Origin: a bacterium
GTDB taxonomy: Bacteria; Electryoneota; JAOADG01
Assembly: GCA_963681965.1 (NCBI GenBank)
Contig: OY820579.1
Span: forward strand, 2,080,001 to 2,144,000
DNA length: 64,000 nt
Reading direction: 5' to 3'
Shown here: one piece after another, positions 1 to 60,890 of the stretch
Layout: each line of letters opens with the position of its first letter
Position numbering within the stretch: position 1 is the stretch's first letter
The notes under the pieces: generated by a model
Databases searched by the model: none
What the model saw: the letters and a program-made list of their open reading frames with translations, nothing else
What the model was told of the DNA's origin: nothing
Position numbers and translations under genes: made by a program

Positions 1-577
1 AATCAGCCGACTCTTTTGATTTGTAAGCGGCGACTTGCACCTGCCAGCATTTTTCGCGCGATTGAACTGGCGGGGTAGTATCGATATCTGTTGCATCGCT
101 CGGAATATCCACCTGAAGCGGTATCTTCGATTCCACCGGTACGGCTTTGATGTACCCGCATCGATAAGCTTCATTCACCGCGGTTTGCGCTTTGGATAAA
201 TCGGCAAAGTTGCCAAACATTATTTCATATTGATCGTTGATATAGCGGAGCTGAGTCGGTTGCGAGAATTTTTTAGCAACTATTTTTATCAACGCTTTTG
301 CCGAATCTTCATTGGGGGTGATTGCCACCCGCACCCGCCAACCATTGATTAGCGGGTGCAGTGAATCAATTTGATCCGATTTATTCGTAGGGGGAGTATT
401 CGGTTTGAAAGTGCCGTAAGTTGCAGGATCCTGATAGCTTACTGGATCGGGATTGGCAATTTCATCCACTGGTCGTTTCTTCAACGAATCGACCACCGAT
501 TGTCGTCGATCCGCTGGAGCCGATAACGTTACCGAAACCAATGAAACCAGTGCGATCCACGAAATAAGGCTACGCAT
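1..577 (-). CDS. SPOR-domain secreted protein (3' end beyond window)
   Basis: Hand translation from ATG at 577: MRSLISWIALVSLVSVTLSA signal peptide, then SPOR-like GWRVRVA...YEIMFGNFADLSKAQ and CWQVQVAAYKSKESAD; open to window edge. Confidence 0.75.
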   Translation of the reverse strand, partial: MRSLISWIALVSLVSVTLSAPADRRQSVVDSLKKRPVDEIANPDPVSYQDPATYGTFKPNTPPTNKSDQIDSLHPLINGWRVRVAITPNEDSAKALIKIVAKKFSQPTQLRYINDQYEIMFGNFADLSKAQTAVNEAYRCGYIKAVPVESKIPLQVDIPSDATDIDTTPPVQSREKCWQVQVAAYKSKESAD

Positions 578-591
578 GTAACTTCCGATCA

Positions 592-2187
592 TTAACGCGG
601 CAACGCAGCAATTTTCTCGGCTTCGCCAAATAGCGTAATTGCCTGCTTCACCAAAGTGTCTTCGGGAATTACAACTTGATAGCGGCTCTGACGGGTATTG
701 AAAATCGCTTGCGCCAATTCACCCTTGAACGATAATGCCAGGAATTTTCGATCCTTCAGAATGTCTTCCTCTTTCATTTCCAATTTCGGATCGTTCAACT
801 TTGCCGCTTTCATCAAGTCAATCAAAATTGCATCGGTGATTTCGACTTCCGCTGCAAACTTGTTAATATCGCTGCCGTATTTTGTCGCATACGATGGTGC
901 GAGTTTCTGTGCATGATCGATCATCACACGCGAATTACGCAGTCGTGCTGACGATAATGTCAATCGTTCTACTGGTGCTTTCACATCCGGAGTGATTCCA
1001 CCACCACCGAACACCGTGCGTCCGGCACTGGTCTTGAATGGATCGCGTTTCACTGTGTCAACCGCTGTGGAATCTTCCTCTTTGTAAATTGCTTCGATAT
1101 ATTCTTCGCGCTGTCCAAGTTTGTAGGGTCGTTGAATCAATCGACCGGTCGGTGTGTAATACCGCGCCGTGGTTAGTCGAACGACCGAACCATCGCGCAA
1201 TGGAAGCTGGCTTTGCACCAAGCCTTTACCGAAAGTGGTCTGTCCGATAATCAGACCGCGATCGAGATCCTGTACTGCTCCGGAAACAATTTCAGATGCC
1301 GATGCCGAACCGGAATTGACCAGTACGACTAGTGGATATTTGCGATGGCGAATGGTACTCAAACTGGTATAATCGCGACGCGAACCGGCTTGACGTCCCT
1401 GCGTATAAACCACCAATTTTCCTTCGGGAATAAACTTCGATGCGACTTTCACCGCTTGATCGAGATACCCGCCGGTATTGTTGCGCAAGTCGAGAATCAA
1501 GCGTTTCATTCCGACTTTCTCGAGGGAATCAAGCGCTTGTTCCATTTCATCGCTGGTCGTAGCAGTGAATTGATTCAACAATACATAACCAGTGTTGCGG
1601 TCGACCATGATCGCGGTTTCTACTGATAATACCGGAATCTTGGCGCGTTTAATCGCGAATTCCATCGGATCGTCGACACCGGGTCGGCGGATTGTCAATT
1701 TCACGATTGAGTCTTTCGGACCGCGAATCCGTTTGAAAACTTCTTCTTCTGCGATACCAAAAGCGGTCTTTCCATCGATCGAAATGATTTTATCGCCAGT
1801 CCGGAGACCCATCCGTTCGGCAGGTGTACCGGGAATAGGAGCAATGACCGTCAGCACTTTATCGTAGATCATAAACTGAATGCCAATGCCTTCGAAATTA
1901 CCGGAAAAGACTTCATCCAAGCGCTGTTCTTCTTTCGCCGGAATGTAGGCGGAGTGCGGATCGAGTTTCTCCAACGCACCGCTGATCGCCCCTTCCATGA
2001 CATCGCCGAAATTCGGTTCTTCGACATAAGTACCGCGAATCGCGGCAATCACTTCGGAGAATTTCTGCATCTGGAATGTTAGCGAACTATCCTTCGAATC
2101 CTGACTGTGCGCCATCCGGAAGCCCGCAAAAAACGCAACCAAAATCAACAACATTCCGCCTCCAGCCCAAGCCAGTTTGCGTCTCAT
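592..2187 (-). CDS. ctpA: S41 family C-terminal processing protease
   Basis: LDPHSAY, PDZ-like GIGI segment, DLRNNTGG, SASASEI and FGKG catalytic motifs. Confidence 0.93.
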   Translation of the reverse strand: MRRKLAWAGGGMLLILVAFFAGFRMAHSQDSKDSSLTFQMQKFSEVIAAIRGTYVEEPNFGDVMEGAISGALEKLDPHSAYIPAKEEQRLDEVFSGNFEGIGIQFMIYDKVLTVIAPIPGTPAERMGLRTGDKIISIDGKTAFGIAEEEVFKRIRGPKDSIVKLTIRRPGVDDPMEFAIKRAKIPVLSVETAIMVDRNTGYVLLNQFTATTSDEMEQALDSLEKVGMKRLILDLRNNTGGYLDQAVKVASKFIPEGKLVVYTQGRQAGSRRDYTSLSTIRHRKYPLVVLVNSGSASASEIVSGAVQDLDRGLIIGQTTFGKGLVQSQLPLRDGSVVRLTTARYYTPTGRLIQRPYKLGQREEYIEAIYKEEDSTAVDTVKRDPFKTSAGRTVFGGGGITPDVKAPVERLTLSSARLRNSRVMIDHAQKLAPSYATKYGSDINKFAAEVEITDAILIDLMKAAKLNDPKLEMKEEDILKDRKFLALSFKGELAQAIFNTRQSRYQVVIPEDTLVKQAITLFGEAEKIAALPR

Positions 2188-4357: not shown

Positions 4358-5536
4358 TCAGACAACTAAAACCACTTCGCGCTGGATATGCGAAGTCACA
4401 CATGGACCAGATGGATCCAAATACACATTAATTTCACTCCGGACACCGAATTCCGGCAGATAAATACCCGGTTCGATCGTGAATCCGGTTCTGGTAATCA
4501 ATCTGCGGGTATCGTGGGTCTCGAAATTGTCGATATTCGCACCGATACCGTGAACATGATCGCCCGGACTCAAACTGTGACCAGTGCGATGAATAAAAAA
4601 TTCTCCGTAACCCCGGCTGGAAATCGCGTTGCGCGCGGCATCGTCGACTTCCCATCCGTACACGGGTTGATTGTGACGATAGCGCTCTTCAACCAACGAT
4701 AGTGCAGCATCGCGACCGCTGAGCACGGCATTGAATACATCGAAGTGCTTGCCGGGGACATCGGTTCCGGCATATCCCGTCCAGGTGATGTCGCTGAAAA
4801 CGTGCTCTTCGCCCGGTTCGCGCGCCCAAAGATCGATTAGAATCCAATCGCCGGGATCGATCGTAAAGCGTAGGTCCGACGACGGTGCGTAGTGCGGATT
4901 GCCGCTTCGCTCATTGGTTGAGACGATCGGCACATCTTCCTCTTCCAGATTGTGCGTTTGAAAGGCGTTGCGAATAAACTGCTGCACATCGAAATCGGTT
5001 ATCGTTTCACCGCCGCGCAGCGCATCGCCGATCCGGTGGAATGCCGCGTCTTTGACACTATTGACGATCTCGGCTGTGATTAAATGTTTGTTCTTCGCCC
5101 GATCACTCCAGCGCGCTGTCAGCCATTGCACCAGATCGGCGGACGATGTCACCGAAAAACCGATACGGTGCAACAGTTCCATCGTTCCGGCATCGACGAT
5201 CGACATGGTCGGGATCGAACTGAAGGGGCAATATTCCATCGCTACGGTCTGATGCCACCGGCTGCACCAGTCGCTGAGTTTCGCTTCCATCTCGACATAA
5301 TTGGTGAACAACTCGACTGTGCCGGGAAAATCGGTGAATTGTTCGCTATCGACTTTGTGTACCAACGCGCGCGCCTCGCCGTGTTGGGGTATCCCGACGA
5401 AGACGCGACGGGTGGTCCAGAGTGTTCTCCCGACCAATCGTTTCCAGATTGGATTTGTCGCGCGAAAATCGTAGATCAACCATGCCTGACAACCGGTGTC
5501 CTGCAACGACTTTTGAATTTTTTCCAGATCGAACAT
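4358..5536 (-). CDS. M24 family (Xaa-Pro) aminopeptidase
   Basis: SDITWT, FIHRTGH, FTIEPGIY, GVRSE metal-binding motifs; start placed at MFDLEK. Confidence 0.88.
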   Translation of the reverse strand: MFDLEKIQKSLQDTGCQAWLIYDFRATNPIWKRLVGRTLWTTRRVFVGIPQHGEARALVHKVDSEQFTDFPGTVELFTNYVEMEAKLSDWCSRWHQTVAMEYCPFSSIPTMSIVDAGTMELLHRIGFSVTSSADLVQWLTARWSDRAKNKHLITAEIVNSVKDAAFHRIGDALRGGETITDFDVQQFIRNAFQTHNLEEEDVPIVSTNERSGNPHYAPSSDLRFTIDPGDWILIDLWAREPGEEHVFSDITWTGYAGTDVPGKHFDVFNAVLSGRDAALSLVEERYRHNQPVYGWEVDDAARNAISSRGYGEFFIHRTGHSLSPGDHVHGIGANIDNFETHDTRRLITRTGFTIEPGIYLPEFGVRSEINVYLDPSGPCVTSHIQREVVLVV

Positions 5537-5708
5537 GACCTGCTCCAGAGTAGCCCTAACTAAGAAAGGTACGGAAAACAAAGCGAGAACGTAACCAGCC
5601 GGAAATGGGTCTGTCTATTTTTATTACAGTTATGTTATTATGGAAGATAGTAATGTTTATTCGAATGATGCTACGGTAGTGTCGCTCGAAACTAAGTTGT
5701 TATCGGAA

Positions 5709-6221
5709 GTCGGGGCTAGCCCCCACGCCCGCTCGCCAACCCTTTTTCTAGTAGGGGCTGACCCCCATGTCCGTCCGTGTCCTTAAATTCTGTCATTGCG
5801 AGGACGCCGCAAAGCGGCGGACGTGGCAATCCACTCTTTTCGTCTTTTCCCAACACCCAATCCCTACCACCCAACACCCATTCTGTTGGTGGCGCAGGCC
5901 TCCGAGCCTGTGATTTTCCTGTAGTACTACCGATCTCCGATTCGGCATTTTGGATCTTTATCTGTCGTTGCGAAGACGACGCGAAGCGGCGGACGTGGCA
6001 ACCTACTCTTTTTTATTCTGTAGTAGTAGGAGCCCTCCGCGGCCTCCCGTTCCAGTATCATTTCTTTGGTTTCCTGTATCCTATTCTGTCGTTGCGAAGA
6101 CGACGCGAAGCGGCGGACGTGGCAACCTACTCTTTTATATTCTGTAGTAGTAGGAGCCCTCCGCGGTCTCCCGTTCCTGTAATCTTTTTTTCGATCCCGT
6201 AGGTCAGAACTTGTTCTGACC
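5709..6221. repeat. Cluster of REP-like palindromes upstream of the beta-propeller gene
   Basis: GTAG-led hairpins (5751, 6199), TGTCATTGCGAGG...CGTGGCAATCC element (5791-5832), near-identical 93-bp direct repeats at 5961-6053 and 6085-6177. Confidence 0.85.
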
Positions 6222-6301
6222 ACCTCCTGTGTCTCAAATTGAAAACAGATATCGAATCTAAATCCTTTAATTAAATTTTCTCCTATCGCTTATCAATTTG
6301 T

Positions 6302-6330
6302 TTGTAAACACTCTTCGTCCGCATTATTAT
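6302..6330 (+). promoter_or_regulatory. Putative sigma70 promoter
   Basis: TTGTAA-N17-TATTAT, upstream of GGAG RBS and ATG 6362. Confidence 0.5.
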
Positions 6331-6361
6331 TGATAGAACCACCTGTCCGACCGGAGCCGCC

Positions 6362-9355
6362 ATGACTTTCCGCCATCGCAGATTTCCACAATCAATGCTC
6401 GCCTTCGCGACGACTCTTATCTTCGTCTTCACAATCCTTCTTCCGCAAATTTCCTACGCCGTCTCGGTACAATCTTCGCGTCTTCCCCACCCTTTCCAGT
6501 TTACCGAGAACAAGGGGCAGTGGGATTCTGCCGTCCTCTATAAATGCGAGGTGCGACGCGATGGTTTCACCTGGTTCCTTGAGCGCGATGGTGTCACCCT
6601 CGTCACTTCCGCAATCGATTCCTCCTCTGTCATTGCGAAGGCGCCGAATGGCGCCTGTGGCAATCCACTCTTTTCAACTTTTCCCAACACCCAATCCCTC
6701 CCACCCAACTCTTATTCTATTGGTGGCGCAGGCCTCCGAGCCTGCGATCCTCTTGTGTCTGGTAAATTCCCCCTAAAATCTCACGCCCTCAAATTTAAAT
6801 TTGTCGTCTCCCGTAGGGGCGAATCGCAAAGTGCTCGCCGAAGGCAATCGCATTCGCCCCTATCTGTTCAAGATGCTCTCACTTGTCGTTGCGAGGAACG
6901 CAGCGAAGGATCGTCCGCCGTAGGCGGAAAGCCGCAGCGAAGTGACGAAGCAATCTACTCTTTTAAAGATTCAATGATACAGGAGGAGATTACCTTCGGT
7001 GAGCCCTTCGGGATTGCTTCGTCATTCCACTTCGGAAGTGCTTCGCACGTTCCTACGTTCATTCCTCGCAAAGACAAAATCAGGATTCAAGATACAAGAT
7101 TAGGGCGTATGCCATACGCCCCTACAGAAAAATATTCGACACAAGAGGATGTCGGAATAAATTCCGACCTACGAAAATACACTTGCGCGAAATGGATTGA
7201 TGCACAAGGTGAACGATCGTGGCATAACAATTATTTCCTCGGAAATGATTCCTCGAAATGGGCACCGGATTGCCGCAATTTTACACGCGTGGTGTATCAT
7301 GAGGTGTGGGAAGGCATCGACGTCGAGTGGTATGAGAGCAAAGGTCATCTCGAATTCGATTTCGTCGTCCATCCCGGTGCGGATCCCAAGCAAATTAAGA
7401 TGGTGTGTGAAGGGTTGGATGCGCCGATAGCAGGCGGAGGACGGACACTCTTGTCCGTCGACTCAGATATTTCTGTCACAAAAGGGAGTCGGACAGGAGT
7501 GTCCGACCTCCACTTATCGAATGAACTTTCGCTTCCCACCTCCCTCGGCGAACTCCGGATGTCAATTCCGGGGGCATACCAAACCACCTCCAACGGCACC
7601 CGCGGAAACGCTGTCACAGCACAATTCAGACTCGAGACAGGAAATGTCTTCGCCATCGATTTGCCGAATGGCTACGATGCATCACAAACGCTGAGAATCG
7701 ATCCTTTGGTGTATTCAACGTATTTGGGAGGAAGCGGAGGTGATCGTGCTGAGGCAATTGTAAGTGATCGAGTTGGGGGTACAGTTATGACTGGTCATAC
7801 ATCCAGCACCGATTTTCCCACGACTCCCGGAACGGGTGATCCCAGCGCTAATGGATATTCAGATTGTTTTATAGCAAAGATAGATTCAATAGGATCGAAT
7901 CTATTGTATGGTACTTATCTGGGGGGAAGTTACCACGATGAAGGGATGAGTGTCGATTACTACTTGGATGGCAGCATCTTAGTAACAGGTGAAACCCAAA
8001 GTCAAAACTTCCCAGTGACCGCCAACAGTCGTCCCTTCATGGGAAGTAGAAATGCATTTGTCACAAAAATTGGGACTAGTGGAAGCAATCTGGTATACAG
8101 TATTTTACTGGGTGGTGTAGGCATTTCTCTGGGTGATTGGGGTGAAACGATTTTGGACGATGGTTCAGGAGGTTGTTATGTTGCCGGTTTTACGGACAGC
8201 CCCAACTTTCCTACAACTTCGATCGACACCACCCTGGGCGGTGAAAGTGATGGTTTCATAACGCATATTGGGCAGACCGGACTTCTCTTTGCGAGTACCT
8301 ATTTAGGGGGGAGTGGGGGAGATTTTATTACTGATGTGCGAATTTCCTCCGATAGCAGTTTGTATGTATGCGGTTTCACGAATAGCAATGATTTCCCTAC
8401 AACACTTAATGCTTATTCTACAACACTGCATAGTACAGCCGATGAAGCTTTTATTGTTAAAATGAATATTACTTGTACTCAATTGATGCTAGGCACTTAC
8501 CTAGGTGGGGGAGCGCGAGATGGCGCTAGCTCACTTAAGGTAATGTCTGATGGAAGCATTGTTGTTGTGGGAACAACAGCCAGTCCTGATTTTCCAGTTC
8601 AAACTGTTTCTTTTGACACAATTTTCAATGCGCAAGTGAAAGGATATATAGCGATCCTGTCCAGTAACTTATCCACACTGCTTGCGAGCACATATTTAGG
8701 TGGAAATACCATTTCGAATTGCATGTCGTTGGACATCTCCCAAAACGGAAATTTAACCATCTCTGGAATAACCACCAGTATTAACTTTCCTACCACATCC
8801 AATGCTTTGCAGAGAGCGAGTGGAGGGTTGCGTGATGGTTTTTTCGCAGTCATGAATCGATCTTGTTCTCATCTGCTTTACAGCAGTTACTTGGGTGGTT
8901 CGAATGATGATGAATGCTATGCCCACTACTTAAAGGATTCAAATAACGTCGTACTAACTGGATGGACAGCTAGCTCGAATTTTCCACTTACTCCAGGGAG
9001 TTTCGACACCACATACACCGCATACACCTCCTTTCTCACCAATCTTCAATTTGAACCCGAAGTTTCGGTTATCAATGTGCCCCCTCTTCCTGTTAGCGAA
9101 AGACTGCTTTACGCTTACCCCAACCCCTTCAACTCCACCACCACACTTTCCTACATCCTCCCGATCACCTCTCACGTCGATCTCCGTCTCTACGATCTGA
9201 CCGGTCGCGAAGTCTCGACGCTGGTGCAACGCGAGCAGCACGCCGGAACGTATCGCCTACTGCTCGATGGTTCACGCTTAGCGAGTGGAACCTATTTCGT
9301 GCGGTTGCAAGCGGGAACATTTTCGAAGACACAGAAGATCGTGTTGTTAAAGTAG
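6362..9355 (+). CDS. Secreted SBBP-repeat beta-propeller protein with N-terminal FTENKGQW domain and T9SS-like C-terminal sorting domain; carries in-frame REP insertions
   Basis: Signal peptide; FTENKGQWD, NYFLGND, EFDFVVHPGADP, RIDPLVYSTYLGGS; repeated STYLGG/TxSxDFP; C-terminal AYPNPFN...YDLTGR...TQKIVLLK. Confidence 0.85.
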   Translation: MTFRHRRFPQSMLAFATTLIFVFTILLPQISYAVSVQSSRLPHPFQFTENKGQWDSAVLYKCEVRRDGFTWFLERDGVTLVTSAIDSSSVIAKAPNGACGNPLFSTFPNTQSLPPNSYSIGGAGLRACDPLVSGKFPLKSHALKFKFVVSRRGESQSARRRQSHSPLSVQDALTCRCEERSEGSSAVGGKPQRSDEAIYSFKDSMIQEEITFGEPFGIASSFHFGSASHVPTFIPRKDKIRIQDTRLGRMPYAPTEKYSTQEDVGINSDLRKYTCAKWIDAQGERSWHNNYFLGNDSSKWAPDCRNFTRVVYHEVWEGIDVEWYESKGHLEFDFVVHPGADPKQIKMVCEGLDAPIAGGGRTLLSVDSDISVTKGSRTGVSDLHLSNELSLPTSLGELRMSIPGAYQTTSNGTRGNAVTAQFRLETGNVFAIDLPNGYDASQTLRIDPLVYSTYLGGSGGDRAEAIVSDRVGGTVMTGHTSSTDFPTTPGTGDPSANGYSDCFIAKIDSIGSNLLYGTYLGGSYHDEGMSVDYYLDGSILVTGETQSQNFPVTANSRPFMGSRNAFVTKIGTSGSNLVYSILLGGVGISLGDWGETILDDGSGGCYVAGFTDSPNFPTTSIDTTLGGESDGFITHIGQTGLLFASTYLGGSGGDFITDVRISSDSSLYVCGFTNSNDFPTTLNAYSTTLHSTADEAFIVKMNITCTQLMLGTYLGGGARDGASSLKVMSDGSIVVVGTTASPDFPVQTVSFDTIFNAQVKGYIAILSSNLSTLLASTYLGGNTISNCMSLDISQNGNLTISGITTSINFPTTSNALQRASGGLRDGFFAVMNRSCSHLLYSSYLGGSNDDECYAHYLKDSNNVVLTGWTASSNFPLTPGSFDTTYTAYTSFLTNLQFEPEVSVINVPPLPVSERLLYAYPNPFNSTTTLSYILPITSHVDLRLYDLTGREVSTLVQREQHAGTYRLLLDGSRLASGTYFVRLQAGTFSKTQKIVLLK
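6626..6748 (+). repeat. In-frame repeat insertion 1 (copy of intergenic 5789-5914)
   Basis: 123 bp, TCTGTCATTGCGA...GCAGGCCTCCGAGCCTGCGAT; peptide SVIAKAPNGACGNPLFSTFPNTQSLPP matches the translation of the upstream non-coding copy. Confidence 0.9.
6813..7172 (+). repeat. In-frame repeat insertion 2 (nested palindrome pairs)
   Basis: GTAG at 6813 to CTAC at 7172 (360 bp); outer pair 6813-6862 / 7101-7125, inner pair 6884-6956 / 7011-7076, extra hairpin 7151-7172. Confidence 0.85.
7436..7511 (+). repeat. In-frame repeat insertion 3 (inverted GGAG-led REP pair)
   Basis: GGAGGACGGACACTCTTGTCCGTC ... GTCGGACAGGAGTGTCCGACCTCC. Confidence 0.8.
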
Positions 9356-9650
9356 GGGAGGGCTCGTGAGCCCTCCCGCCAGTAGGGGCGGGCTCCCACG
9401 CCCGCCCGTTCTTGTATCTTTTTCCTTTCCCAATTCCCAACACCTACCCCCTAACACCCTTATTTTCGGAGATGGCCCTTTAGGGCCGTCATTGCTGTTC
9501 TGTAGGGTTCATTCGCGAACGAACCGAGAGCGGTGCTACCTGCACCGCCGTAGGGCGTATGCGATTACCTTCGGTGAGCGCAGAGCGATACGCCCCTATG
9601 GAAAAAAGAGTAGGTTGCCACATCCGTTAGCCAACGGATTCGCACCGACA
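9352..9650. repeat. Cluster of REP-like palindromes downstream of the beta-propeller gene
   Basis: Several GTAGGG-led hairpins (the first overlaps the TAG stop); 9601-9650 is an inverted relative of the 5961/6085 repeat unit. Confidence 0.85.
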
Positions 9651-9671
9651 ATTCACGATTACGAAACAGCA

Positions 9672-9705
9672 GAAATACAAAACGCAGGCTTTCGCCTGCG
9701 TTGTT
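9672..9705 (-). terminator. Intrinsic terminator (possibly bidirectional)
   Basis: Stem AACGCAGGC/GCCTGCGTT with 4-nt loop and a U-rich tail on the minus strand, between convergent genes. Confidence 0.7.
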
Positions 9706-9744
9706 CGCACTTGTACTAAAACACCAAGAACTAATTTCGAAGCA

Positions 9745-11271
9745 CTATTGTCTTGCTTCATCTTCCGACTGAGGACCGACCCGAATCGAACCAATATAGA
9801 AATACCGCAGATTTAAATCGTGGCTGTAAATCCTGATCGAATTCTTCCCTTCGATCAATCGTTCGGAAATCGAAACCCGTTCCCAGCCGTCGGGATCGGA
9901 GGTATTCCACACCCGCGACGGTGCCCATTCGCTGGCGACCGGACGACCATTCACTTCAATCACGCCGAGTGTCCGGTTCATAAATGTCAATGGATAATTC
10001 GTCGTACCGCGAACCGCTTGCACCCAGAGGAACATCTGTGGATCGTTCGGGTTGTGTTTCGGTAAATTGAAATCGATCTGCAGGAACTGACCGCCCACCG
10101 GATTCTTGTTGGCATAAGCTAATCCGAATTCCCACGCATATCGATTCCACTGTCGCACAAACGAGATCTTCGGACCGGCATTGATATCATTCTTGAATCC
10201 ACCGACATCGGGATGAACGATCCCGGCAAACCATCGAGTCAGGTTGCTTGATACCGGTTTACCGTCCCCATCGACCCGCAATTCTACTGCATACCCGGTT
10301 TTGTAATAACCCGCGACCGGTTGCGATGGATCGGTTTGCGTCACGATGATCCGCATTTCCGGAGGTTTGATGTAACCCGTTACATCGCCGAATTCGATCA
10401 AGTGCGCACCGAACGAGAGATTGCCTTCCCATTTACCGATGCTGTGGAATGAATTGTCGATTGTAATCGGACCATCGATCGGACTCGTCTGAATTATCAC
10501 CGGACGCTGGGTCGAGACATTAATCGGAGTCAACTGAAAATTCAGTCGCTGCTCTTGAAATGCCGTACTGATCAGGACACTGGCTTCGGGAATATCGACT
10601 TTGAATCCGGCTTTCATCACTTGAATCCGGTGCATTCCCAACGGCATCAACAACCATGCGTCGGTTTCTTGCGGACTCAACTGTCCATCCAAGTAAATGG
10701 AAGCGCCCGGAATATTGGTCGAAACAAAAACGCGACCACTGCCACCCACCGAGGGGAACCGGTTTCGTTCACGAGGAATCGGTGCCGGTACAAAGTCCGA
10801 GCGAGGATAATCCAGATCCGGTCGATAATCCCGTGATTCGGTCGGTGGTACCGGTTTCGCTGGTGTCGGTGGAACGTACGGTTCGACTTGAGCCGGAAGT
10901 GAGTCTTGGTGAATCAGCCGAAATTTTGCAACCGATTGCTTTCCCGGTTCTACGTGAATAGCCAAACCGGATGGAAATGATACATAGGATTCACGTCGAA
11001 TTTCGACGATATAATCGCCCGGTTTCAACCCGCGAATGACAGCAGGCGTGACAAATCCAGTGGGTGCACGGTTGACGAGGATTTCCGCCCCTTTCGGTTT
11101 GGAAACGACCCCCAGTTCGCCGGGTAATTCGTATGTAAAATAAAAATATCCACTAACGATTAATACTAACGCGGTAAACGCAATAATAAACTGGATCAGC
11201 CAGCGGCGATCTTTAATCCCACTAGTAACCAACGTATCTGATTGCGGGCGGCTTCTCCAGAATAGAAGCAT
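9745..11271 (-). CDS. Membrane-anchored PEGA-domain protein
   Basis: N-terminal TM helix; repeated SKPKGAEILVN / STNIPGASIYLDG PEGA motifs. Confidence 0.75.
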   Translation of the reverse strand: MLLFWRSRPQSDTLVTSGIKDRRWLIQFIIAFTALVLIVSGYFYFTYELPGELGVVSKPKGAEILVNRAPTGFVTPAVIRGLKPGDYIVEIRRESYVSFPSGLAIHVEPGKQSVAKFRLIHQDSLPAQVEPYVPPTPAKPVPPTESRDYRPDLDYPRSDFVPAPIPRERNRFPSVGGSGRVFVSTNIPGASIYLDGQLSPQETDAWLLMPLGMHRIQVMKAGFKVDIPEASVLISTAFQEQRLNFQLTPINVSTQRPVIIQTSPIDGPITIDNSFHSIGKWEGNLSFGAHLIEFGDVTGYIKPPEMRIIVTQTDPSQPVAGYYKTGYAVELRVDGDGKPVSSNLTRWFAGIVHPDVGGFKNDINAGPKISFVRQWNRYAWEFGLAYANKNPVGGQFLQIDFNLPKHNPNDPQMFLWVQAVRGTTNYPLTFMNRTLGVIEVNGRPVASEWAPSRVWNTSDPDGWERVSISERLIEGKNSIRIYSHDLNLRYFYIGSIRVGPQSEDEARQ

Positions 11272-11327: not shown

Positions 11328-12044
11328 TTGGCAAGACATTCAGAATGGTATGAGACTGCATTTAACTCAAGGTATCTGGAACTGTACGCTCACCGCGATC
11401 GTTCGGAATGCCTTAAGATGTATAATACGTTGCAGCAACGGGAGATGTTTCCGATTACTGGTTTCGTCGTCGATGCTGCCTGTGGAACTGGCAGATGGAT
11501 GCAGATTTTAACCGAACATGCGATTCCCACCATCGGGTTTGATTTGTCCCGGGATTTGCTTGATCATACCGGTAATCTATCAGTGATACGCGGAAATCTG
11601 TTACAAATCCCATTTCAATCGAAATCTGCCAGTGCCATCACCAGCCTCTTTTCCAGTTTTGGTTACTTTGCCTCATCGGAGCTGGATTATCAACAACTTT
11701 CGGAGTTCTCGCGAATTCTGAAACCAAACGGATGGCTGCTGCTCGATACTGCCCCCATTAGAACTCTCGATACATTGGTTGTAGAAAATCTGCAGCGCTT
11801 CTCCGATGGTAGCACTGCGAAAATTACCCGGCGACGCGAGGATAATGTTGTAATCAAGACTATTCTCCTCGATTCCGATGAATATTGGGAAGAACATCTC
11901 CGGATTTATGATTCTGACACTCTAGATCGCATATTGTTCAAAATAGGTTTTGAGTTAAGCTGGCGAATCGGCGATTACGACAATAAACCATTCAATGAAA
12001 CCGATTCACCCCGAATGATCGGATGTTATGTTCGAAGAGATTAA
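11328..12044 (+). CDS. Class I SAM-dependent methyltransferase
   Basis: VVDAACGTGR motif I, SLFSSFGYF, LKPNGWLLLD; overlaps bshC start. Confidence 0.88.
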   Translation: MARHSEWYETAFNSRYLELYAHRDRSECLKMYNTLQQREMFPITGFVVDAACGTGRWMQILTEHAIPTIGFDLSRDLLDHTGNLSVIRGNLLQIPFQSKSASAITSLFSSFGYFASSELDYQQLSEFSRILKPNGWLLLDTAPIRTLDTLVVENLQRFSDGSTAKITRRREDNVVIKTILLDSDEYWEEHLRIYDSDTLDRILFKIGFELSWRIGDYDNKPFNETDSPRMIGCYVRRD

Positions 12045-13440
12045 CCGCTGTTCTTGGTTAGCGACTACCCTTCCGGCGATTGTCCGCAGCGGTCTGACTG
12101 CGAATACCCCCATTTCAGCTTTCCCTAATGGACTATTCGAACGGCTGGATCCGGTTCCGGGGCGGGTAGCAACTGGTCAACAACCCGGTTTCGGTGGTGG
12201 ACCCCTCTACAGCGTGTACAAACGGTGGACGGCGGAATATCTGAGTAATCACGATCGGAATCGATGTTTCTACTGGATCGAAGCCGGGGACAGCGATTGG
12301 AACGAGATCGCTCGGATTGAGACTGAAAAGGGTACGATCCACTGGGAAGATCGCGATGTCGGAGTTCCTGTAGGTGCTCGGGTAATGCCACCGGATTTCG
12401 TCGAGAAACTTACTGGATTGTGGTCGAATATCGATCGGAACATGTTAAATCCATTTGTTCACTCCACAATTCTCGATGCATTTCAAGCAGCACACCAATT
12501 ATTCGACCCAGACAACCATCATTCACAATGGTATCCCGGTCCTCCATTTCTTTCCGACGCAGATAGTATTCGCTTTCGAGCGCTCATCGCCGATTGGTTC
12601 GAGCGATTGACTGAAGGAAAAACGGCATTACTCAAGGGAATATCGCGAGTTGAGACGGATTTTGGTCATGCTCAAGCGACTCTGCATGGTAATCGAACCG
12701 GTTGGTTTTATTGTAAAACCTTGAATTCCCGTCGCTTTCCGGTTGAATCAGTCGATTCCGACACTTATGTTATTGATGATGTCCAGTATTCTGCGCACGA
12801 TTTGAGTGAATACGCTCGATCCGATGACGGGTATTTCATTCCCGGTGCGTTGTGGCGTATTGTCGTTCAGCAAGCACTGTTACAACCGGAAGCGGTTGTC
12901 GTCGGAACGTCCGAGGCTGCTTATTGGGGTGAAGTCGCGGAGTTATTTCATTGGGCAGGTCAACCGTTTCCCAAGCTGGTTATTCGGGTCGGTGGAACCA
13001 TTTTACCGGTGAAGTATCGGACACTTGGTTGTTCAGAATTGTTATCTGCAACACCACCAGAGTTACCCGTTTCTGGAGCATGGAAACAGCTTAACGATCA
13101 GATCGAATCACTTTCGCAAACCTTGGAGCAACTGCAGACAGATCTTCCGCAACATCTAACCGATGCCGTTGCCAAAGGTAGCGAAAAAGCGATCTATCAA
13201 TTACACCGAATTCTGGAACTCGGTCAGAAATATCGCGACGAGCAGACTGGTAGTCGTCGTAAATTATGGGAACAAGCTCAAACACTACTCTTAGGTAGTG
13301 GTTCCAAAGCCGCACAGGAACGGTGGTGTACGTTATTGGAAGCGAATCTTCGCTGGGGTGGATCTGGATTGTCGGATATTCAATCTACTATGTTTTCTAC
13401 TGCGACAGGTGGTAGAGTAGTACTTCAGGAGAACCATTAA
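12028..13440 (+). CDS. bshC: Bacillithiol biosynthesis protein BshC (divergent)
   Basis: VATGQQPGFGGGPLYSVYK, FYWIEAGDSDWNEI, GTSEAAYW, QER motifs; next to bshB1. Confidence 0.82.
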   Translation: MFEEINRCSWLATTLPAIVRSGLTANTPISAFPNGLFERLDPVPGRVATGQQPGFGGGPLYSVYKRWTAEYLSNHDRNRCFYWIEAGDSDWNEIARIETEKGTIHWEDRDVGVPVGARVMPPDFVEKLTGLWSNIDRNMLNPFVHSTILDAFQAAHQLFDPDNHHSQWYPGPPFLSDADSIRFRALIADWFERLTEGKTALLKGISRVETDFGHAQATLHGNRTGWFYCKTLNSRRFPVESVDSDTYVIDDVQYSAHDLSEYARSDDGYFIPGALWRIVVQQALLQPEAVVVGTSEAAYWGEVAELFHWAGQPFPKLVIRVGGTILPVKYRTLGCSELLSATPPELPVSGAWKQLNDQIESLSQTLEQLQTDLPQHLTDAVAKGSEKAIYQLHRILELGQKYRDEQTGSRRKLWEQAQTLLLGSGSKAAQERWCTLLEANLRWGGSGLSDIQSTMFSTATGGRVVLQENH

Positions 13441-13441
13441 T

Positions 13442-14164
13442 ATGGCAGATGTCCTTGTCATTGCAGCACATCCCGATGATGTCGAACTGGCATGTGCGGG
13501 ATCGGTTGCAAAGTTCGTCAATGCTGGTAAAGAAGTTGTGATCGTCGATCTGACTCGCGGTGAATTAGGTACTCGTGGAACACCGGAACTACGACAAGAA
13601 GAGGCGACTGCTGCTGCCAAAATTCTTGGTGTATCGATCCGGGAGAACCTCGGTTTGCCCGATGGACGGATCAGTGAATCCAATGAGGAACACCGCGCTG
13701 CGATCATTAAAGCGATCCGAAAGTACCGACCGCATCTCCTGCTTTATCCCTATCCTGATGATCGACACCCCGATCACGGCGCGACCGGTCGGCTCTGCGA
13801 GGAAACCTCCTATTTAGCCGGGTTGGCGAAAATTGTCGATGGTTTGGAACCATTCCGACCGCAGGTCAAAGTCGCTTTTCAGCAGGCATGGGAACAGAAA
13901 ACGACCTTTGTCATTGATGTGTCCGATACGTGGGAACAGCGCCTAGCGGCAATTAGATGCTTCAAATCGCAGTTCTACGATCCAAACTCTGTGGAACCGG
14001 AGACTTGGATCGCTTCACCGGAATTTCTCGTCGGTATTGAAGCGCGCGGGAAAAACAATGGCTTCAAAATCGGCGTAAAATATGGGGAAGCGTTTTGGCA
14101 TCGGGGACCGCTACCCATATTGGATCTTGGCTTTTTCTTTACCGGTCCGATCCGGCACGTATAA
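13442..14164 (+). CDS. bshB1: Bacillithiol biosynthesis deacetylase BshB1
   Basis: AAHPDDVEL, DLTRGELGTRGT, DRHPDH, FKSQF. Confidence 0.92.
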   Translation: MADVLVIAAHPDDVELACAGSVAKFVNAGKEVVIVDLTRGELGTRGTPELRQEEATAAAKILGVSIRENLGLPDGRISESNEEHRAAIIKAIRKYRPHLLLYPYPDDRHPDHGATGRLCEETSYLAGLAKIVDGLEPFRPQVKVAFQQAWEQKTTFVIDVSDTWEQRLAAIRCFKSQFYDPNSVEPETWIASPEFLVGIEARGKNNGFKIGVKYGEAFWHRGPLPILDLGFFFTGPIRHV

Positions 14165-15253: not shown

Positions 15254-17641
15254 ATGAAAACATCTCTAATACGCTCTGCGTGGTTAGCGTTATTACTCGC
15301 AATCACCGGAATTATCCTTGCGCAACCGATCGAACCGTGGGTCGCGAACAATCAGGATATCCACGATTATCTCTTGAATCTTCAGACCCGGTTCCCTGCC
15401 AATATTCATCTGGATTCGGTCGGACATAGCCAACAATTGAATATGCCGATCTGGATGGCGCGCATTTCGAGCAATGCCACCATCGAGCAGGATAAACCGC
15501 GCATTCTGTTGATCGGTCAGGTACACGCCGAAGAGTATCTTGGCGTCATGCTTAGCCTGCGCCTGGCGGCGGAACTCTGCTCGCTGCAATCGAATACCGC
15601 TCCGGCACGTTATCGCGATTGGCGAAATCAACTGGAAATCTACATCATGCCGACTGCCAATCCCGAAGGTTTGCAAGTCGTGACCAGCAATGACGATCCC
15701 TATTTTCGCAAAAATCAACGTCAATTGATGGGTAATTCACTGCACTATTTCCCCGGTGTCGGAAATGATTCCGATGGCGTCGACATCAATCGCAATTTCC
15801 CGATTAATTGGGAATTCGGCGATACCATCTGGCAAGTAGGTGCGCATCCGAATGAATTATTCGATTACTATCGCGGACCTGCAGCGGCTTCGGAAGCTGA
15901 AACTCAGGCGCTGATGGCGATCAACCTGCGGTTGAGACCGATGTTCGGAATCGTTTATCACTCATCGCAGACCGGATCGTTGTCACAGAAGATATATTAT
16001 CCGTGGGATTGGGAAGCAACCGGTACCGACGTAGTTACCCCCGGTCGGCATAGTCCCGACTATGGCGTGATTAGCGAGGTCTGCAACGATGTCGGTGCCA
16101 ATATGCAGAAGCATACGCACGACGGTTTCTATCAAGCTTCCGGTTATCGTACGCGTAATGGCGCGTTGCAGGATTGGTTCTACCAATCGACTGGATGCAT
16201 CATGATGGAATGTGAAATTGGTCCTGCTGTACGTAATGCGAATCATCCCGATTCCATCACCGCCATCGGTCAGATGAATGACGTGATTGCCGGAAATTAT
16301 GTCTTGTTCAATCGAGCACTGAATACCAATCCAACCGGATCGAGTCTCACTGGTCTCGTCACCGATTCCATTTCGCATTCTCCGATCGAAGGGGTAGAAG
16401 TTCGATTAGTCGAGTTATACGATCCGATACTGGCACCGCGCTTGACCAATAGTGTCGGTCGTTACAATCGTCCGGTGTCACAGGGCTCCTATAATCTGGA
16501 GTTCCGGAAATACGGTTACGCAACCCGACGGATCTCTAATGTGATCGTCGGATCTAATCAACGTCGACCGGTGAGCACCACTTTAGTTGCGCTTCCAACG
16601 TACAATGTGACATTCCAAGTGGTGAATCCGAACAGCGCCGGTTTAGGTGCCAGTGTGATCATCAGCCATCCTGATCGACCCGATGATACTTTACAAACCA
16701 ACCGCTCCGGATTGGCTACTACCCGGCTTGTCGCCGATACCTTCCGCGTAATAGTGAACAACGAATACTATGTGGTTCAGATTCGCTCGATTGTTCCTTC
16801 CTTCGAAGGCGAGACCTTCCAGTTTAGGTTAGTTCCGTATGTAATGAATTATACCGATGGCTTCGAGCAGGGAACCGATTTCTGGACATTTGATACGAAT
16901 GCGAATTGGGGTACCGACGGACAGTCGCATACCGATTTATATGCGCTTGCCGACTCACCAGATGGAACGCCGTTTTACCCTCGACCTGAAGATATGTATC
17001 ATGCGAACACGAATACGACGGCGTTGTGTCTGACGACCATCCCACTGGGATCGGGCGCAACCGATGCCTCGCTATCGTATTGGATCAAAGGATTTCTTGA
17101 ACCGGCACACGATTCCTGCTGGGCGGAAGCATCGATCGATAACGGCGTCAACTGGAGCGTTTGTCCGGGAACAACGATCTCGATGCTGCGATTCGATTGG
17201 CGACGTGTCAATATCTCTTTGCGTCAATTCCTCGGGCATCAAGTACGGTTCCGGATTCGGATGATGACCGATGATAAAATCAATCAGGATGGTATTCATC
17301 TCGACGATATCGATTTGCGCATCGGAAACACAACTTCTGTTGACCTAACGCCGCAGATTCCGGGCGAGTACCGTCTCGCGACACCGTATCCCAATCCGTT
17401 CAACGCAACCTTGCGAATTCCGTACATCGTACCGAAAGCGGGTGAAGTGTCGTTCCGAATCTACGATCTGACCGGACGAACTGTTGCTACTTTCAACACC
17501 CATCCCCGCACTGCCGGTGCGACTTACTACCTGTGGAATGCGTCGAGCGCACTACACGGCGAACCAGCCAGCGGTATTTATTTCATTGAGATGAAGGCGG
17601 GTAGTTATCACGCGGTAAAGAAGGCAATGCTGTTGAAGTAG
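15254..17641 (+). CDS. M14 zinc carboxypeptidase with C-terminal sorting domain
   Basis: HAEE, NPEG, RKN, GVDINRNF, YRGP..SEAET; C-terminal PYPNPFN...KKAMLLK. Confidence 0.88.
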   Translation: MKTSLIRSAWLALLLAITGIILAQPIEPWVANNQDIHDYLLNLQTRFPANIHLDSVGHSQQLNMPIWMARISSNATIEQDKPRILLIGQVHAEEYLGVMLSLRLAAELCSLQSNTAPARYRDWRNQLEIYIMPTANPEGLQVVTSNDDPYFRKNQRQLMGNSLHYFPGVGNDSDGVDINRNFPINWEFGDTIWQVGAHPNELFDYYRGPAAASEAETQALMAINLRLRPMFGIVYHSSQTGSLSQKIYYPWDWEATGTDVVTPGRHSPDYGVISEVCNDVGANMQKHTHDGFYQASGYRTRNGALQDWFYQSTGCIMMECEIGPAVRNANHPDSITAIGQMNDVIAGNYVLFNRALNTNPTGSSLTGLVTDSISHSPIEGVEVRLVELYDPILAPRLTNSVGRYNRPVSQGSYNLEFRKYGYATRRISNVIVGSNQRRPVSTTLVALPTYNVTFQVVNPNSAGLGASVIISHPDRPDDTLQTNRSGLATTRLVADTFRVIVNNEYYVVQIRSIVPSFEGETFQFRLVPYVMNYTDGFEQGTDFWTFDTNANWGTDGQSHTDLYALADSPDGTPFYPRPEDMYHANTNTTALCLTTIPLGSGATDASLSYWIKGFLEPAHDSCWAEASIDNGVNWSVCPGTTISMLRFDWRRVNISLRQFLGHQVRFRIRMMTDDKINQDGIHLDDIDLRIGNTTSVDLTPQIPGEYRLATPYPNPFNATLRIPYIVPKAGEVSFRIYDLTGRTVATFNTHPRTAGATYYLWNASSALHGEPASGIYFIEMKAGSYHAVKKAMLLK

Positions 17642-17665: not shown

Positions 17666-17700
17666 AAACAGGCGCGATCACTCGCGCCTGTTTTGTTGTT
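17666..17700 (+). terminator. Intrinsic terminator
   Basis: ACAGGCGCGA-TCAC-TCGCGCCTGT followed by TTTGTTGTT. Confidence 0.8.
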
Positions 17701-17730
17701 GTGGATATCGAAAGTTAGTTGTCATCGGTA

Positions 17731-17782
17731 GTAGGGGCGGACCCCCGTGTCCGCCCGTAGTCAGACGAAGCCTGAAACCGAA
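17731..17782 (+). repeat. Dispersed GTAG-type REP with conserved tail
   Basis: GTAGGGGCGGACCCCCGTGTCCGCCCG...CGAAGCCTGAAACCGAA; related to 5751 and 37042. Confidence 0.7.
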
Positions 17783-48751: not shown

Positions 48752-49242
48752 TTTGGTATGCTTAATCATTGCCTGAATCGAATCTCTAAAAAAATTGGAG
48801 TTGAAAAATGGAAGAATCGTTAAAACCAAAAGATCTTCTTGAGGTGACTCAAGGTGTCTTGAAAGAAATTCCAGTCTATCAAGATTTGCTTCAACCTACT
48901 GTTAAAGAAGTAGGAAATGCATTATGTTCTGCAGTTAAATTAGCTCTTTTACCATTAAAAGGGTTGATTTGGGGTTATGATAAAATTGAAGATTATTTGA
49001 TGTCTTCGATCACGAAAAAGCTTGAGAAAGTTCCTCCAGAGAAGATTATTACTCCCGATCCGCATGTTGTTGGTCCTGCAATTGAAGCCTTGAAATATAC
49101 TGCTCAAAATCCAAATTTGCGTGAAATGTTTTCGAGCCTAATTGCATCTTCAATGGATCCATCAATGAGGTGGTACCCTCAGTTTGGACAGTTTTGTGCG
49201 AATCTTAGTTAGATTGCACCGCCCACTGTCTGCTGTTTCTTG

Positions 49243-50127
49243 TCAGGCAGCTGCCTGACAAGAAAGATTTCTTAGACTATCGGTGTAGACTTCATCTGGG
49301 GTTTGATAGCCCAAGCCTTGGTGCGAACGTTCGCTGTTGTAGAACGAAAAATACTCACCGATGCTACGCTCTGCAATGCGAACTGAATCGTACCCTTTCA
49401 AGTATACTTCCTCGTACTTCAACGACTTCCACAACCGTTCGACAAAACGGTTATCCATCCACCGACCTTTACCATCCATACTGATCCGAACGCCTGCCTC
49501 TTTCAAAACATCCGTAAATGCGATGCTGGTAAACTGACACCCTTGATCGCTGTTGAAGATCTCAGGCTTCCCATACTTCGACAACGCATCCTTCAATGCT
49601 TCCACACAGGAATGCGTATCCAGCGTATTCGAAAGTCGCCACGACAGTACTTTCCGGCTGTACCAATCGATCACCGCCACCAGATACACAAAACCCCGAG
49701 CCAATGGGATGTACGTGATATCGGTTGCCCACACTTGATTCGCCCGATCTACCACAATATCGCGAAGCAAGTACGGATAAATCTTGTGTTCCTTGTCAGG
49801 AACCGTCGTACGCGGCTTGCGGTACAATGCTTCCAGACCGAGGAGGCGCAGCAGGGAACGAACCTTTTTCCGTCCAACGTCGATGCCCTGCTTCGATAAC
49901 TCCACCACCAGTTTACGAGCACCGTAGAACGGAACTTTCAGATGAAGCTCATCCAATGTTCGCAACAGCATCAACTCGGTCGAATCAAGCGGAACCGGAC
50001 GATAGTAGAAACTGCTGCGTGGAATCTGGATCAAAGAACACTGCTGAACCACCGGCAAACTGGCACCAGGATCGATCAGCGCTTCACGCTCAGAACGCCC
50101 AAGCGACTGAGCCCCCGTGACAAAAAA
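49243..50127 (-). CDS. IS3 OrfB DDE transposase (entered by -1 frameshift)
   Basis: [34 protein letters not shown]; frame stays open up to the T6 run at 50122-50127. Confidence 0.9.
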
Positions 50128-50378
50128 TCGTTCTCCATCGTTAACTGGCCAATCTTGGCGCGAAGCTCCTTAAGGTCTACTTCTTCACTTCCTGACGACT
50201 CGGTCTTGCCAAACACCGATGCAGCATGATCCAAAAGCTGCCTCTTCCACTGGCTGATCTGATTCGGATGAACCTGATACATACTCGCCAGTTCCGATAC
50301 CGTCTTTTCACCCTTGAGGGCTGCTAATGCTACCTTCGCCTTGAAATCAGGCGATAAGGTCCGTCGTAATCCCGACAT
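50076..50378 (-). CDS. IS3 OrfA
   Basis: FKAKVALAA...ELASMYQVHPNQISQWK HTH; [12 protein letters not shown]. Confidence 0.9.
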   Translation of the reverse strand: MSGLRRTLSPDFKAKVALAALKGEKTVSELASMYQVHPNQISQWKRQLLDHAASVFGKTESSGSEEVDLKELRAKIGQLTMENDFLSRGLSRLGVLSVKR

Positions 50379-50906
50379 TGTAAACTCCCTGCTTGCTGTC
50401 AAAATATCGGGCAAAGCAATCTAACTAACAAACTGTCCAGGAAAACGGGACCACTTCACAACTGCGGGATTAGTACATCCAGCATTTATAGATTTAATAA
50501 AAAATATGACTTCCGACGAAGCAAGAATATTAACAAGTTTTCGAGGAACAACACCATTTATTGAAGTTCGATTTAGAAAATTAGATTTATCTGATTATAG
50601 TTATAATGTGATCGAAAAATACTTTGGTTTTTCAGAACAAAAAGAAGTGTGTTTAAAAATTGAAAATTTTGATAGTTATTTAGATAATCTTTGTAGGATG
50701 CGCTTGATTGAAATTCCATTTGACAGTTCATTAGCCGATAAGACCGAATATGAAAGATTGAAAATTATCGCATATGAAAAGTATAATAACAATATACCTA
50801 TAGGAAAACGAGTAGATTATACAGATAAAATGCTATTAATCACTTCTTTTGGGAAGGACTTTTTAGCAGTTTGCATTCGCAATTGAAATAATTTCACCGA
50901 GATCAT

Positions 50907-50948
50907 CAAAAATAACCCCGGGCACAAATAAATGTGCTCGGGGTTTAT
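50907..50948 (-). terminator. Intrinsic terminator between convergent genes
   Basis: AACCCCGGGCACA/TGTGCTCGGGGTT stem with A/T flanks. Confidence 0.7.
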
Positions 50949-60883: not shown

Positions 60884-60890
60884 TTGTTGC

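Follow-up and report, generated by a model that had tools for sequence, protein, structure and literature searches.

The subject of this report is a gene encoding a 997-aa protein in a 64-kb stretch of a bacterial contig (OY820579.1, positions 2,080,001 to 2,144,000; GTDB lineage Electryoneota), hereafter the window. In three loops, the N-terminal DUF7948 domain of this protein is expanded by palindrome-rich repeat DNA that is translated in frame, and the same three loops carry different stacks of repeat units in other members of a large paralog family. The explanation that we consider probable is that units resembling repetitive extragenic palindromic (REP) sequences, or the inverted REP doublets known as REPINs, accumulated and nested in three permissive DUF7948 loops, were filtered for reading frame and redistributed by recombination, and encode peptides that are tolerated as disordered extensions. 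A first-pass annotation of the same DNA had described three separate in-frame REP insertions adding about 185 aa to a secreted protein, and had attributed them to repeated, selected exaptation that may diversify a surface protein or act through mRNA structure. Our DNA-level analysis of the source genome covers the window, and the paralogs were compared as proteins.

Three composite inserts in an open reading frame

The three elements lie where they had been annotated, and none of them interrupts the 997-aa open reading frame (ORF), which we confirmed at 6362..9355. Insert 1 does match a non-coding repeat upstream of the gene: positions 6637-6756 and 5803-5922 are 83% identical over 120 nt (direct repeat family D2), and in a BLAST alignment 6657-6744 matches 5823-5910 at 92% over 88 nt. 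When the two copies are aligned, they show a 3-nt indel. Read by eye, the borders of insert 1 show short similar flanking words that are also present at the non-coding copy, so they may be part of the element; no clear target-site duplication was seen there.

The nested palindromes reported for 6813-7172 (insert 2) correspond to three inverted repeats, I4, I7 and I11, and the RNA of this insert folds into a single long nested hairpin (z = -6.05, equalled by 0 of 100 shuffles). Its outer stem is made by two GTAG REPs, at 6813 (+) and 7117 (-), that form a REPIN-like doublet. Direct repeat families D3, D4, D9, D11 and D13 touch insert 2, and units of D9, D11 and D13 reappear in the non-coding array downstream of the gene; the D11 unit is a 17-nt module from the loop of the REP that we call F, which recurs at 6988-7004 and 9563-9579 with 17/17 nt. 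The hairpin at the end of insert 2 (j) is older than the rest, since 16 of the 19 full-length paralogs, including those with the shortest loops, have its peptide in loop 2. Insert 3 is the inverted pair that had been annotated, a palindrome (I5) with 22-nt arms (7436-7457 and 7490-7511) that are 91% complementary. Its fold z is -6.86 and that of insert 1 is -3.41, as compared with -0.45 and -0.34 for two control stretches of the host gene. All seven perfect hairpins with a stem of at least 7 in 6362-7720 are inside the three inserts, and the density of perfect hairpins per kb is 5.2 in this part of the gene, 2.2 in the propeller part and 15.4 in the downstream array. The G+C content is 50-55% in the inserts and 44% in the propeller part. 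A search of 5400-9900 with Rfam at permissive thresholds gave only sub-threshold chance matches, to mir-541 and Histone3.

In each insert, at least 2-5 units are thus nested or concatenated, and the description as three separate insertions proved too simple. The added length stands as a gross figure (559 nt of repeat DNA in the gene, ~186 aa), whereas comparison with the insert-free paralog P0019, whose loop windows total 53 aa as against 214 aa in the window protein, gives a net gain of 161 aa.

The units recur outside the gene. The exact REP sequence GTAGGGGCG is found four times in the 64 kb, at 6813 (+), 7117 (-), 9382 (+) and 17731 (+); with one mismatch there are 14 matches in the window, including 5751 and 9352, against 7.4 expected, a count reached by 0 of 100 shuffles. 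The GTAG REP stems at 6814-6862, 7103-7121, 9356-9377, 9386-9407 and 9553-9595 are perfect and 7-11 bp long. Two of these REPs, 6814-6862 and 9553-9595, carry 27-nt loops, beyond the 2-20 nt range given in Table 1 of PMC3733652, and they differ by 24 nt from the short-looped one at 7103-7121. Heads of the H unit, which opens insert 1, are found at no more than two mismatches six times, all between 5791 and 7076, and three of the heads are in the upstream array (5791, 5963 and 6087); at up to three mismatches the 11 occurrences in the window do not differ significantly from the 7.3 expected. No GTAG tag was seen in the H, e, j and k units when their sequence and hairpins were inspected, so by tag they are not members of the GTAG REPs.

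How does the domain accommodate this cargo? The 997-aa protein matches DUF7948 (PF25778) at 144 bits (cut-off 27), and the match falls into 3 stretches, the best of which places aa 279-354 on profile positions 74-149. In contrast, P0019 scores 156 bits, with a single stretch that runs along profile positions 1-214 of 214; the inserts thus separate recognisable blocks of the N-terminal domain, as had been proposed. An AlphaFold2 model of the 997-aa protein, built from a 65-sequence alignment, has a mean predicted local distance difference test (pLDDT) score of 76.4. Within DUF7948, the segments with pLDDT below 50 are exactly aa 93-134, 153-269 and 360-381, and they are flanked by confident strands (E77-85, E138-148, E278-291, E346-350 and E388-393). 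The model of P0019 (844 aa) has pLDDT below 50 only at 1-47 and 747-768, and nowhere in the domain. The pLDDT pattern and this comparison therefore place the inserts in loops that connect strands, with the fold otherwise intact, in good agreement with the permissive loops inferred in the first-pass annotation. The cargo itself is predicted to be disordered loop, with no recognisable motif. The blocks on either side of insert 2 are conserved, with mean identities among the 19 full-length paralogs of 92% for the strand LKSHALKFKFV and 89% for the core at aa 273-355. In the propeller, the model shows repeated four-strand blades with pLDDT above 90; a fold search with the whole model returned CylK propeller enzymes as the top PDB match (E 2.6e-20), which is uninformative on the N-terminal domain.

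No forward frame of inserts 1 and 3 contains a stop, which leaves their length as the only thing that matters. In insert 2, the frame of the gene has 0 stops and the other two have 4 and 4, where shuffled sequences have ~4.8 per frame; by our own calculation, the chance of an open 120-codon frame in this insert is ~e^-4.8, below 1%. Among the paralogs, frames are not broken at the chance rate: at least five broken loci were found beside 19 intact genes. We infer that 19 intact genes with 2-8 repeat units each need selection for frame, which would mean that the proteins, cargo included, are made and matter.

The broken copies come in several forms. P0122 (278 aa) is 96% identical to P0007 until residue 186, which lies inside the loop-2 cargo, and past this residue it continues in the +1 frame of the conserved core (50%, E 1e-16, against the +1-frame translation of the window). 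It probably pairs with the N-truncated P0036 as one locus. In P0124 the break is in the propeller, P0150 is a middle fragment whose C-terminal end lies in the propeller, and P0020 and P0066 have no N-termini. Shorter proteins were taken from the best 120 of 633 matches of a search aimed at them, four of the 120 being assigned to the same genome, and short fragments may be missed.

Modular cargo among paralogs

The homolog search scored 8000 candidates, 3373 of which matched at E ≤0.001, and the paralogs were taken from the best 120 of these 3373. At least 22 proteins of at least 548 aa among the matches listed are, on our inference, paralogs of one genome; 19 are full length (844-1018 aa) and 3 are without N-terminus. 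The expectation that the same three loops would hold different cargo in frame is borne out, 19 of the 22 listed proteins (≥548 aa) being intact at full length. With loop windows set at aa 86-137, 148-275 and 352-385 of the window protein, loop lengths in the 19 full-length paralogs range over 23-80, 21-128 and 9-72 aa. The window protein has 52, 128 and 34 aa, and P0019 has 23, 21 and 9 aa; cargo is nearly absent in P0019, P0018, P0012 and P0006.

The cargo is modular. Words such as SLVGAVREPPVS, SRGGSPRPP, VGAYGIRPDH, VIARTPQSGGRGN and GGAGLRAC recur in different combinations and in different loops, as do RRGE(PQSARRRQ)SHSPL, CRCEERS...SDEAIYSF, GRMRYAPT and GGGRTLLSV...SRTGVSD, and several of these words are translations of non-coding units of the window. 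For instance, loop 1 of P0004 (aa 76-126) is 67% identical to the translated array 5696-5848, with the units in identical order, and the REP at 9381-9408 translates, by eye, to SRGGLPRPP, a peptide also present in loop 1 of P0017 and in the fragment P0124. One REP occurs among the paralogs in long and short forms that are 8 aa apart, and there are paralogs with the F + spacer + i doublet of insert 2 and without its inner units.

Searches beyond the family returned little. An exhaustive search of representative proteins with the 124-aa peptide of insert 2 gave 3 matches, two of them the family members P0122 and P0010. The third, P0123 (2,624 aa, from another source), is an ORF built of short tandem peptide repeats, with 16 stretches at 29% identity to part of insert 2; it resembles a translated DNA repeat array and was judged spurious. 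With the ORF over the non-coding array as query against longer proteins, only P0003 and P0001 were found among 1841 candidates, single units being too short for significance, so this search yields no evidence of the composite encoded there in other protein families. A divergent protein of 374 aa assigned to the same genome, P0175 (37% identity), consists of DUF7948 only and ends where the propeller would begin; at the loop-2 position it has a long expansion of its own, different from those above.

Conservation along the 19 full-length paralogs is uneven, with identities of 89-94% in the DUF7948 core, 43% in the propeller and 66% in the C-terminal domain, a mosaic that suggests that the ends evolve in concert and the propeller diverges. 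We built a maximum-likelihood tree on the propeller region (23 forks, 7 starred), whose tips are well supported, and compared it with the cargo. Near-identical propellers are found with unlike cargo in P0004/P0013 (loop 2 of 119 vs 54 aa), P0014/P0015 and P0007/P0016. Conversely, distant propellers go with common cargo in P0001/P0003, whose loop 1 agrees at 51 of 52 aa, and the full loop-2 composite is common to P0001, P0002 and P0004 despite their distant propellers. There are 9, 9 and 5 cargo states for loops 1, 2 and 3, and the changes needed on the propeller tree equal those for shuffled labels: 12 observed for loop 1 (shuffled mean 11.6), 13 for loop 2 (13.3), 5 for loop 3 (5.0), 6 for the H-pair (5.4) and 6 for the F/f REP (6.6). 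Cargo thus does not track the propeller tree, a pattern indicative of recombination or rapid turnover. Most simply, the N-terminal domain would undergo concerted evolution and recombination and either take blocks of cargo with it or exchange them; alternatively, cargo would be gained and lost independently at a very high rate.

Homologs from other assemblies also have repeat-like peptides in loops 2 and 3. A search of contigs of other genomes with the paralog alignment gave 78 loci, with L001 as the sole full-length relative (42% identical); it carries a reversed H unit in frame in loop 3. The intergenic DNA 3' of the L001 gene (L001 5261-5298) contains a GTAG REP together with a sequence of the k-prime type known from insert 3; this k-prime copy, at L001 5274-5298, has 2 mismatches in 25 and was matched by 0 of 200 shuffles. 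An H head is present at L065 3057-3070, beyond the match, in DNA that appears intergenic as judged without an ORF check. The H-tail pattern at up to two mismatches was not found in L001. Note that the k-prime copy was found by a 25-nt pattern search, used instead of blastn-short: when the inserts were compared by blastn-short with the 78 loci (420,871 nt), one match was obtained, at E 0.028, and control coding stretches gave 3 equally weak ones, so that this comparison has no power. Insert-free paralogs and outgroups indicate that the loops were originally short.

Origin and fate of the cargo

We propose that a first hairpin in a permissive loop would act as a landing pad, later units inserting into or beside it, because REP-type elements cluster and changes there are harmless. 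Selection at the protein level would then purge copies with frame-shifting or stop-bearing cargo, leaving survivors in frame. Blocks of cargo may travel among paralogs, and between loops and intergenic arrays, through homologous recombination or gene conversion, which the ~90% identity of the DUF7948 core and the sharing of repeat units would help. The peptides would be mostly tolerated passengers that lengthen flexible surface loops, and no designed functional module. Of the exaptation claimed in the first-pass annotation, what stands is that the cargo is repeat-derived, translated in frame and housed in permissive loops; "selected" is not supported: the data show tolerance and a purifying filter on frame, and no benefit of the peptides was found.

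Several observations weigh against this proposal. The assignment of the paralogs to one genome is our deduction and does not come from coordinates, 12 of the 23 forks of the propeller tree have support below 80 and its deep nodes are poor, and the kk' cargo of loop 3 is conserved in 15 of the 19 full-length paralogs, which could reflect function. The repeat arrays are weakly depleted in stop codons (6-8% of shuffles have as few; over all six frames the fraction is 0.06-0.21), a depletion that we do not take as adaptation to coding. No mobilising enzyme was identified either: among the 46 window proteins scanned, no Y1/IS200-like domain of REP-associated tyrosine transposases (RAYTs) was found, the transposases present being of rve and DDE_Tnp_1 type. 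Finally, within the 64 kb the units are nearly confined to one locus (5.7-9.7 kb), with 17731 in addition, which also fits repeats specific to this gene family.

This last point, the absence of a RAYT from the window and the colinearity of whole blocks, as between loop 1 of P0004 and the upstream array, would be accounted for if the copying were reversed or purely local, that is, if family-specific sequences had spread by gene duplication or conversion and there had been no invasion by mobile REPs. We think this very improbable: the units are palindromic GTAG-tagged hairpins typical of REPs, at 17731 an unrelated gene is followed by an exact GTAG REP, intergenic DNA of other genomes contains copies of the H head and of the GTAG and k-prime units, and the loops appear to have been short at the outset. 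Still less credible is a misassembly of repeats, or a pseudogene with an accidentally open frame. Repeat-rich regions are prone to assembly error, but here the frame is open through 559 nt of repeat DNA, of which insert 2 alone would be expected to contain ~4.8 stops; the same loops follow this pattern in 18 other full-length paralogs and in homologs from other assemblies; and the core domain is 89-94% conserved.

A role of the inserts as nucleic acid, in mRNA stability, translation speed, co-translational export, DNA supercoiling or as recombination sites, with translation being incidental, also has little probability. It would agree with the strong predicted folds of all three inserts, as compared with the control stretches, with REPs having been proposed elsewhere as RNA elements (PMC3733652), and with a simple scan predicting no termination, as no in-gene hairpin is followed by a T-run on the coding strand. 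However, none of the inserts matches an Rfam family, and the cargo varies so widely among paralogs, down to near absence in four of them, that no fixed RNA structure is required by the family. Alternatively, the loops might be cassette sites of a surface-variation system, in which ~25 paralogs shuffle units and frameshifts turn proteins off and on much as at a contingency locus. The number of cargo states and their decoupling from the propeller tree, the repeat-like peptides in the same loops of homologs from other genomes, the loss of frame of P0122 inside loop-2 cargo, the broken loci beside the intact ones and a protein that is secreted and probably surface-attached would all suit such a system, which we nevertheless consider unlikely. 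The cargo is predicted to be disordered, with no recognisable motif; of the breaks, that in P0122 alone has been traced to cargo, and those of P0124 and of P0150 at its C-terminal end fall in the propeller; reversible switching and population variation are conjectural; and the random distribution on the tree suits neutral turnover or recombination no less than the surface diversification of the first-pass annotation. A bolder form, in which the DUF7948 loops as repeat-capturing landing pads would turn selfish REP-type DNA into a combinatorial, switchable surface repertoire exported by the type IX secretion system (T9SS), is likewise doubtful.

The locus and its relation to known in-frame repeats

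The features of the gene and of the two non-coding arrays that adjoin it are collected in Table 1.

Table 1. Features of the host gene, its inserts and the flanking repeat arrays (window positions unless given as aa of the 997-aa protein)
Feature	Position	Strand	Description
Host gene	6362..9355	+	997-aa ORF
Signal-peptide-like segment	aa 1-34		Sec type, judged by eye only
DUF7948 domain	aa ~45-450		Interrupted by the three inserts; Pfam
SBBP beta-propeller	aa ~451-900		Pfam SBBP and AlphaFold2 model
T9SS type A C-terminal sorting domain	aa 919-994		NCBIfam TIGR04183
Insert 1	6626..6748	+	Loop 1, aa ~89-129; H unit + spacer + e hairpin
H unit of insert 1	6626-6675		Head TGTCATTGCGA..., tail ...GGCAATCCACTCTTTT; inner hairpin 6639-6656
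Spacer of insert 1	6676-6722		Pyrimidine-rich
Hairpin e of insert 1	6727-6746		Peptide GAGLRACD
Conserved DUF7948 strand LKSHALKFKFV	6773..6805	+	aa 138-148, between inserts 1 and 2; block pLDDT 93
Insert 2	6813..7172	+	Loop 2, aa ~151-270; nested composite
GTAG REP F of insert 2	6813-6865	+	Stem 11, 27-nt loop holding a further module
H-type unit of insert 2, forward	6882-6965
H-type unit of insert 2, reverse	6988-7080
GTAG REP i of insert 2	7100-7127	-
Hairpin j of insert 2	7151-7168		Peptide VGINSD; older than rest of insert
Inverted repeat I11 in insert 2	6813-6828 / 7110-7125
Inverted repeat I7 in insert 2	6883-6898 / 7062-7077
Inverted repeat I4 in insert 2	6932-6955 / 7012-7035
Conserved DUF7948 core	7178..7426	+	aa 273-355, between inserts 2 and 3; confident strands
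Insert 3	7436..7511	+	Loop 3, aa ~359-383; two inverted hairpins
Hairpins of insert 3	k 7440-7459, k-prime 7488-7507		Stem 8 bp each, inverted orientation
Upstream non-coding array	5696..6221		Divergent intergenic region; families D1-D6
GTAG-type REPs, upstream array	5708-5735, 5750-5777
H + spacer + e composite, upstream array	5789-5914		Source-like copy of insert 1
Tandem pair of H-type units, upstream array	5951-6198		124 nt each
Hairpin, upstream array	6202-6221
Downstream non-coding array	9352..9702		Between convergent genes; D5, D6, D9, D11, D13, I1-I3; six perfect hairpins
GTAG REP, downstream array	9352-9377		Stem 10, loop 2; contains TAG stop codon of host gene (9353-9355)
GTAG REP, downstream array	9382-9407
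Spacer resembling that of insert 1	within 9352..9702
REP with 27-nt loop module, downstream array	9553-9595
Reversed H-type unit, downstream array	~9602-9660
Hairpin, downstream array	9681-9702

The tandem 124-nt copies of the upstream array (H-type unit and spacer, D1) are 89% identical, and, in contrast to the length differences among coding copies, their period is not divisible by three. From its domains, the 997-aa protein is a secreted T9SS cargo, probably attached to the surface through the C-terminal sorting domain: TIGR04183 scores 45.7 bits (cut-off 23), Por_Secre_tail (PF18962) 41 bits (cut-off 27) and SBBP (PF06739) 29.3 bits (cut-off 20.5). The host gene is adjoined by genes for an M24 peptidase and a PEGA protein, and farther out by those for Obg, DprA, BamA, LpxA/C/D, ArgRS and BshC; the neighbourhood is one of ordinary chromosomal genes. 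A scan for promoters and terminators gave counts close to shuffle expectation.

Elsewhere in the window, a second T9SS cargo gene (15254-17641) codes for an M14 carboxypeptidase with CarboxypepD_reg and Por_Secre_tail, and the stretch 3' of it (17666-17758) contains a 12-bp-stem hairpin as well as the exact GTAGGGGCG REP at 17731. Adjacent BshC-like and PIG-L (BshB-like) genes at 12028-14164 suggest bacillithiol synthesis, a minor clue to the lineage; T9SS and the closest relatives in the database would point to an uncultured bacterium of the Fibrobacteres-Chlorobi-Bacteroidetes (FCB) type. A mobile-looking stretch, 49243-63908, includes an rve-type transposase, a DDE_Tnp_1/DUF772 transposase and two tyrosine integrases, and also codes for a QueC-like protein and for a protein of 884 aa that has an AEP-TOTE primase-like domain; a perfect 30-nt palindrome (49236-49265) overlaps the end of the rve ORF (49243-50058, minus strand).

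The closest functional likeness is to the Rickettsia palindromic elements (RPEs; Ogata et al, 2000, 2002), palindromic families translated in frame, of which 44 insertions are reported in genes of R. conorii (PMC10969869); the likeness does not come from sequence comparison. RPEs, like the loop cargo, are in-frame palindromic families within conserved proteins, compatible with the fold and with several families per genome. However, as described in that source, they are ~150 bp long, occur mostly one per gene and lie in unrelated housekeeping genes of an intracellular alphaproteobacterium. Here, hairpin units of ~20-50 nt from several families are stacked and nested, so that a loop can reach 128 aa; they occupy the same three loops of a single domain in ~20 paralogs of a secreted T9SS protein.

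GTAG REPs are short G+C-rich stem-loops with a stem of ~5-13 bp and a loop of 2-20 nt (PMC3733652, Table 1), and intragenic GTAG/CGTC REPs are on record from Opitutus terrae, R. conorii, Thauera and further organisms (Di Nocera et al, 2013; PMC3733652). According to the same source, they mostly encode 20-30 aa, clusters 43-82 aa, and often lie in DNA repair genes; some genes are hit twice, different REPs occupy one recB site in two Xanthomonas species, and a neutral placement in loops is suggested. Common to these REPs and the present units are the terminal GTAG, inverted dimers, and REPs wholly inside ORFs, sometimes twice per gene. The use of the REP terminus as a TAG stop codon, seen here at 9352-9355, is reported there as well (PMC3733652). 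In contrast to those intragenic REPs, a loop window here reaches up to 128 aa and 161 aa are added net to one protein, a large paralog family is polymorphic at these very sites, and the H, e and k units have no GTAG. The form of a REPIN, two inverted REPs and a spacer making one long hairpin, is that of the F...i and k...k-prime pairs; REPINs are described by Bertels and Rainey (PMC3337134) as extragenic, whereas the units here lie in a translated frame, with no RAYT in the window. Miniature transposable elements with inverted repeats (MITEs) fused in frame with ORFs (ERIC, Coxiella QMITE1 and those of Anabaena; PMC10969869, PMC5896051) are also small non-autonomous repeats that contain open frames. 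Compared with them, the present units are shorter and hairpin-like, and for none of them could terminal inverted repeats accompanied by target-site duplications be demonstrated.

We found no mention of DUF7948 in the literature, and nothing relevant on REPs in coding regions of surface-protein paralogs or on SBBP with T9SS, nor any account of the present pattern, in a search that did not cover the supplementary list of intragenic REPs of PMC3733652. In-frame palindromic repeats have been known mainly from Rickettsia and from scattered single REPs; what sets this case apart is the scale and the arrangement, with stacks of several families in three fixed loops, polymorphic paralogs and source-like arrays adjoining the gene. 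For annotation, this is a warning that long low-complexity "linkers" in secreted proteins of uncultured bacteria of the FCB type may be translated repeat DNA. With ~20 paralogs bearing different stacks of units, insert-free and broken copies and source-like arrays, the family is a natural experiment with replication, in which one can test how fast units are gained and lost, what share of survivors is in frame, whether repeat arrays recombine with one another and how much the fold tolerates. The locus thereby bears on the question of whether such repeats are tolerated junk or raw material for new protein sequence.

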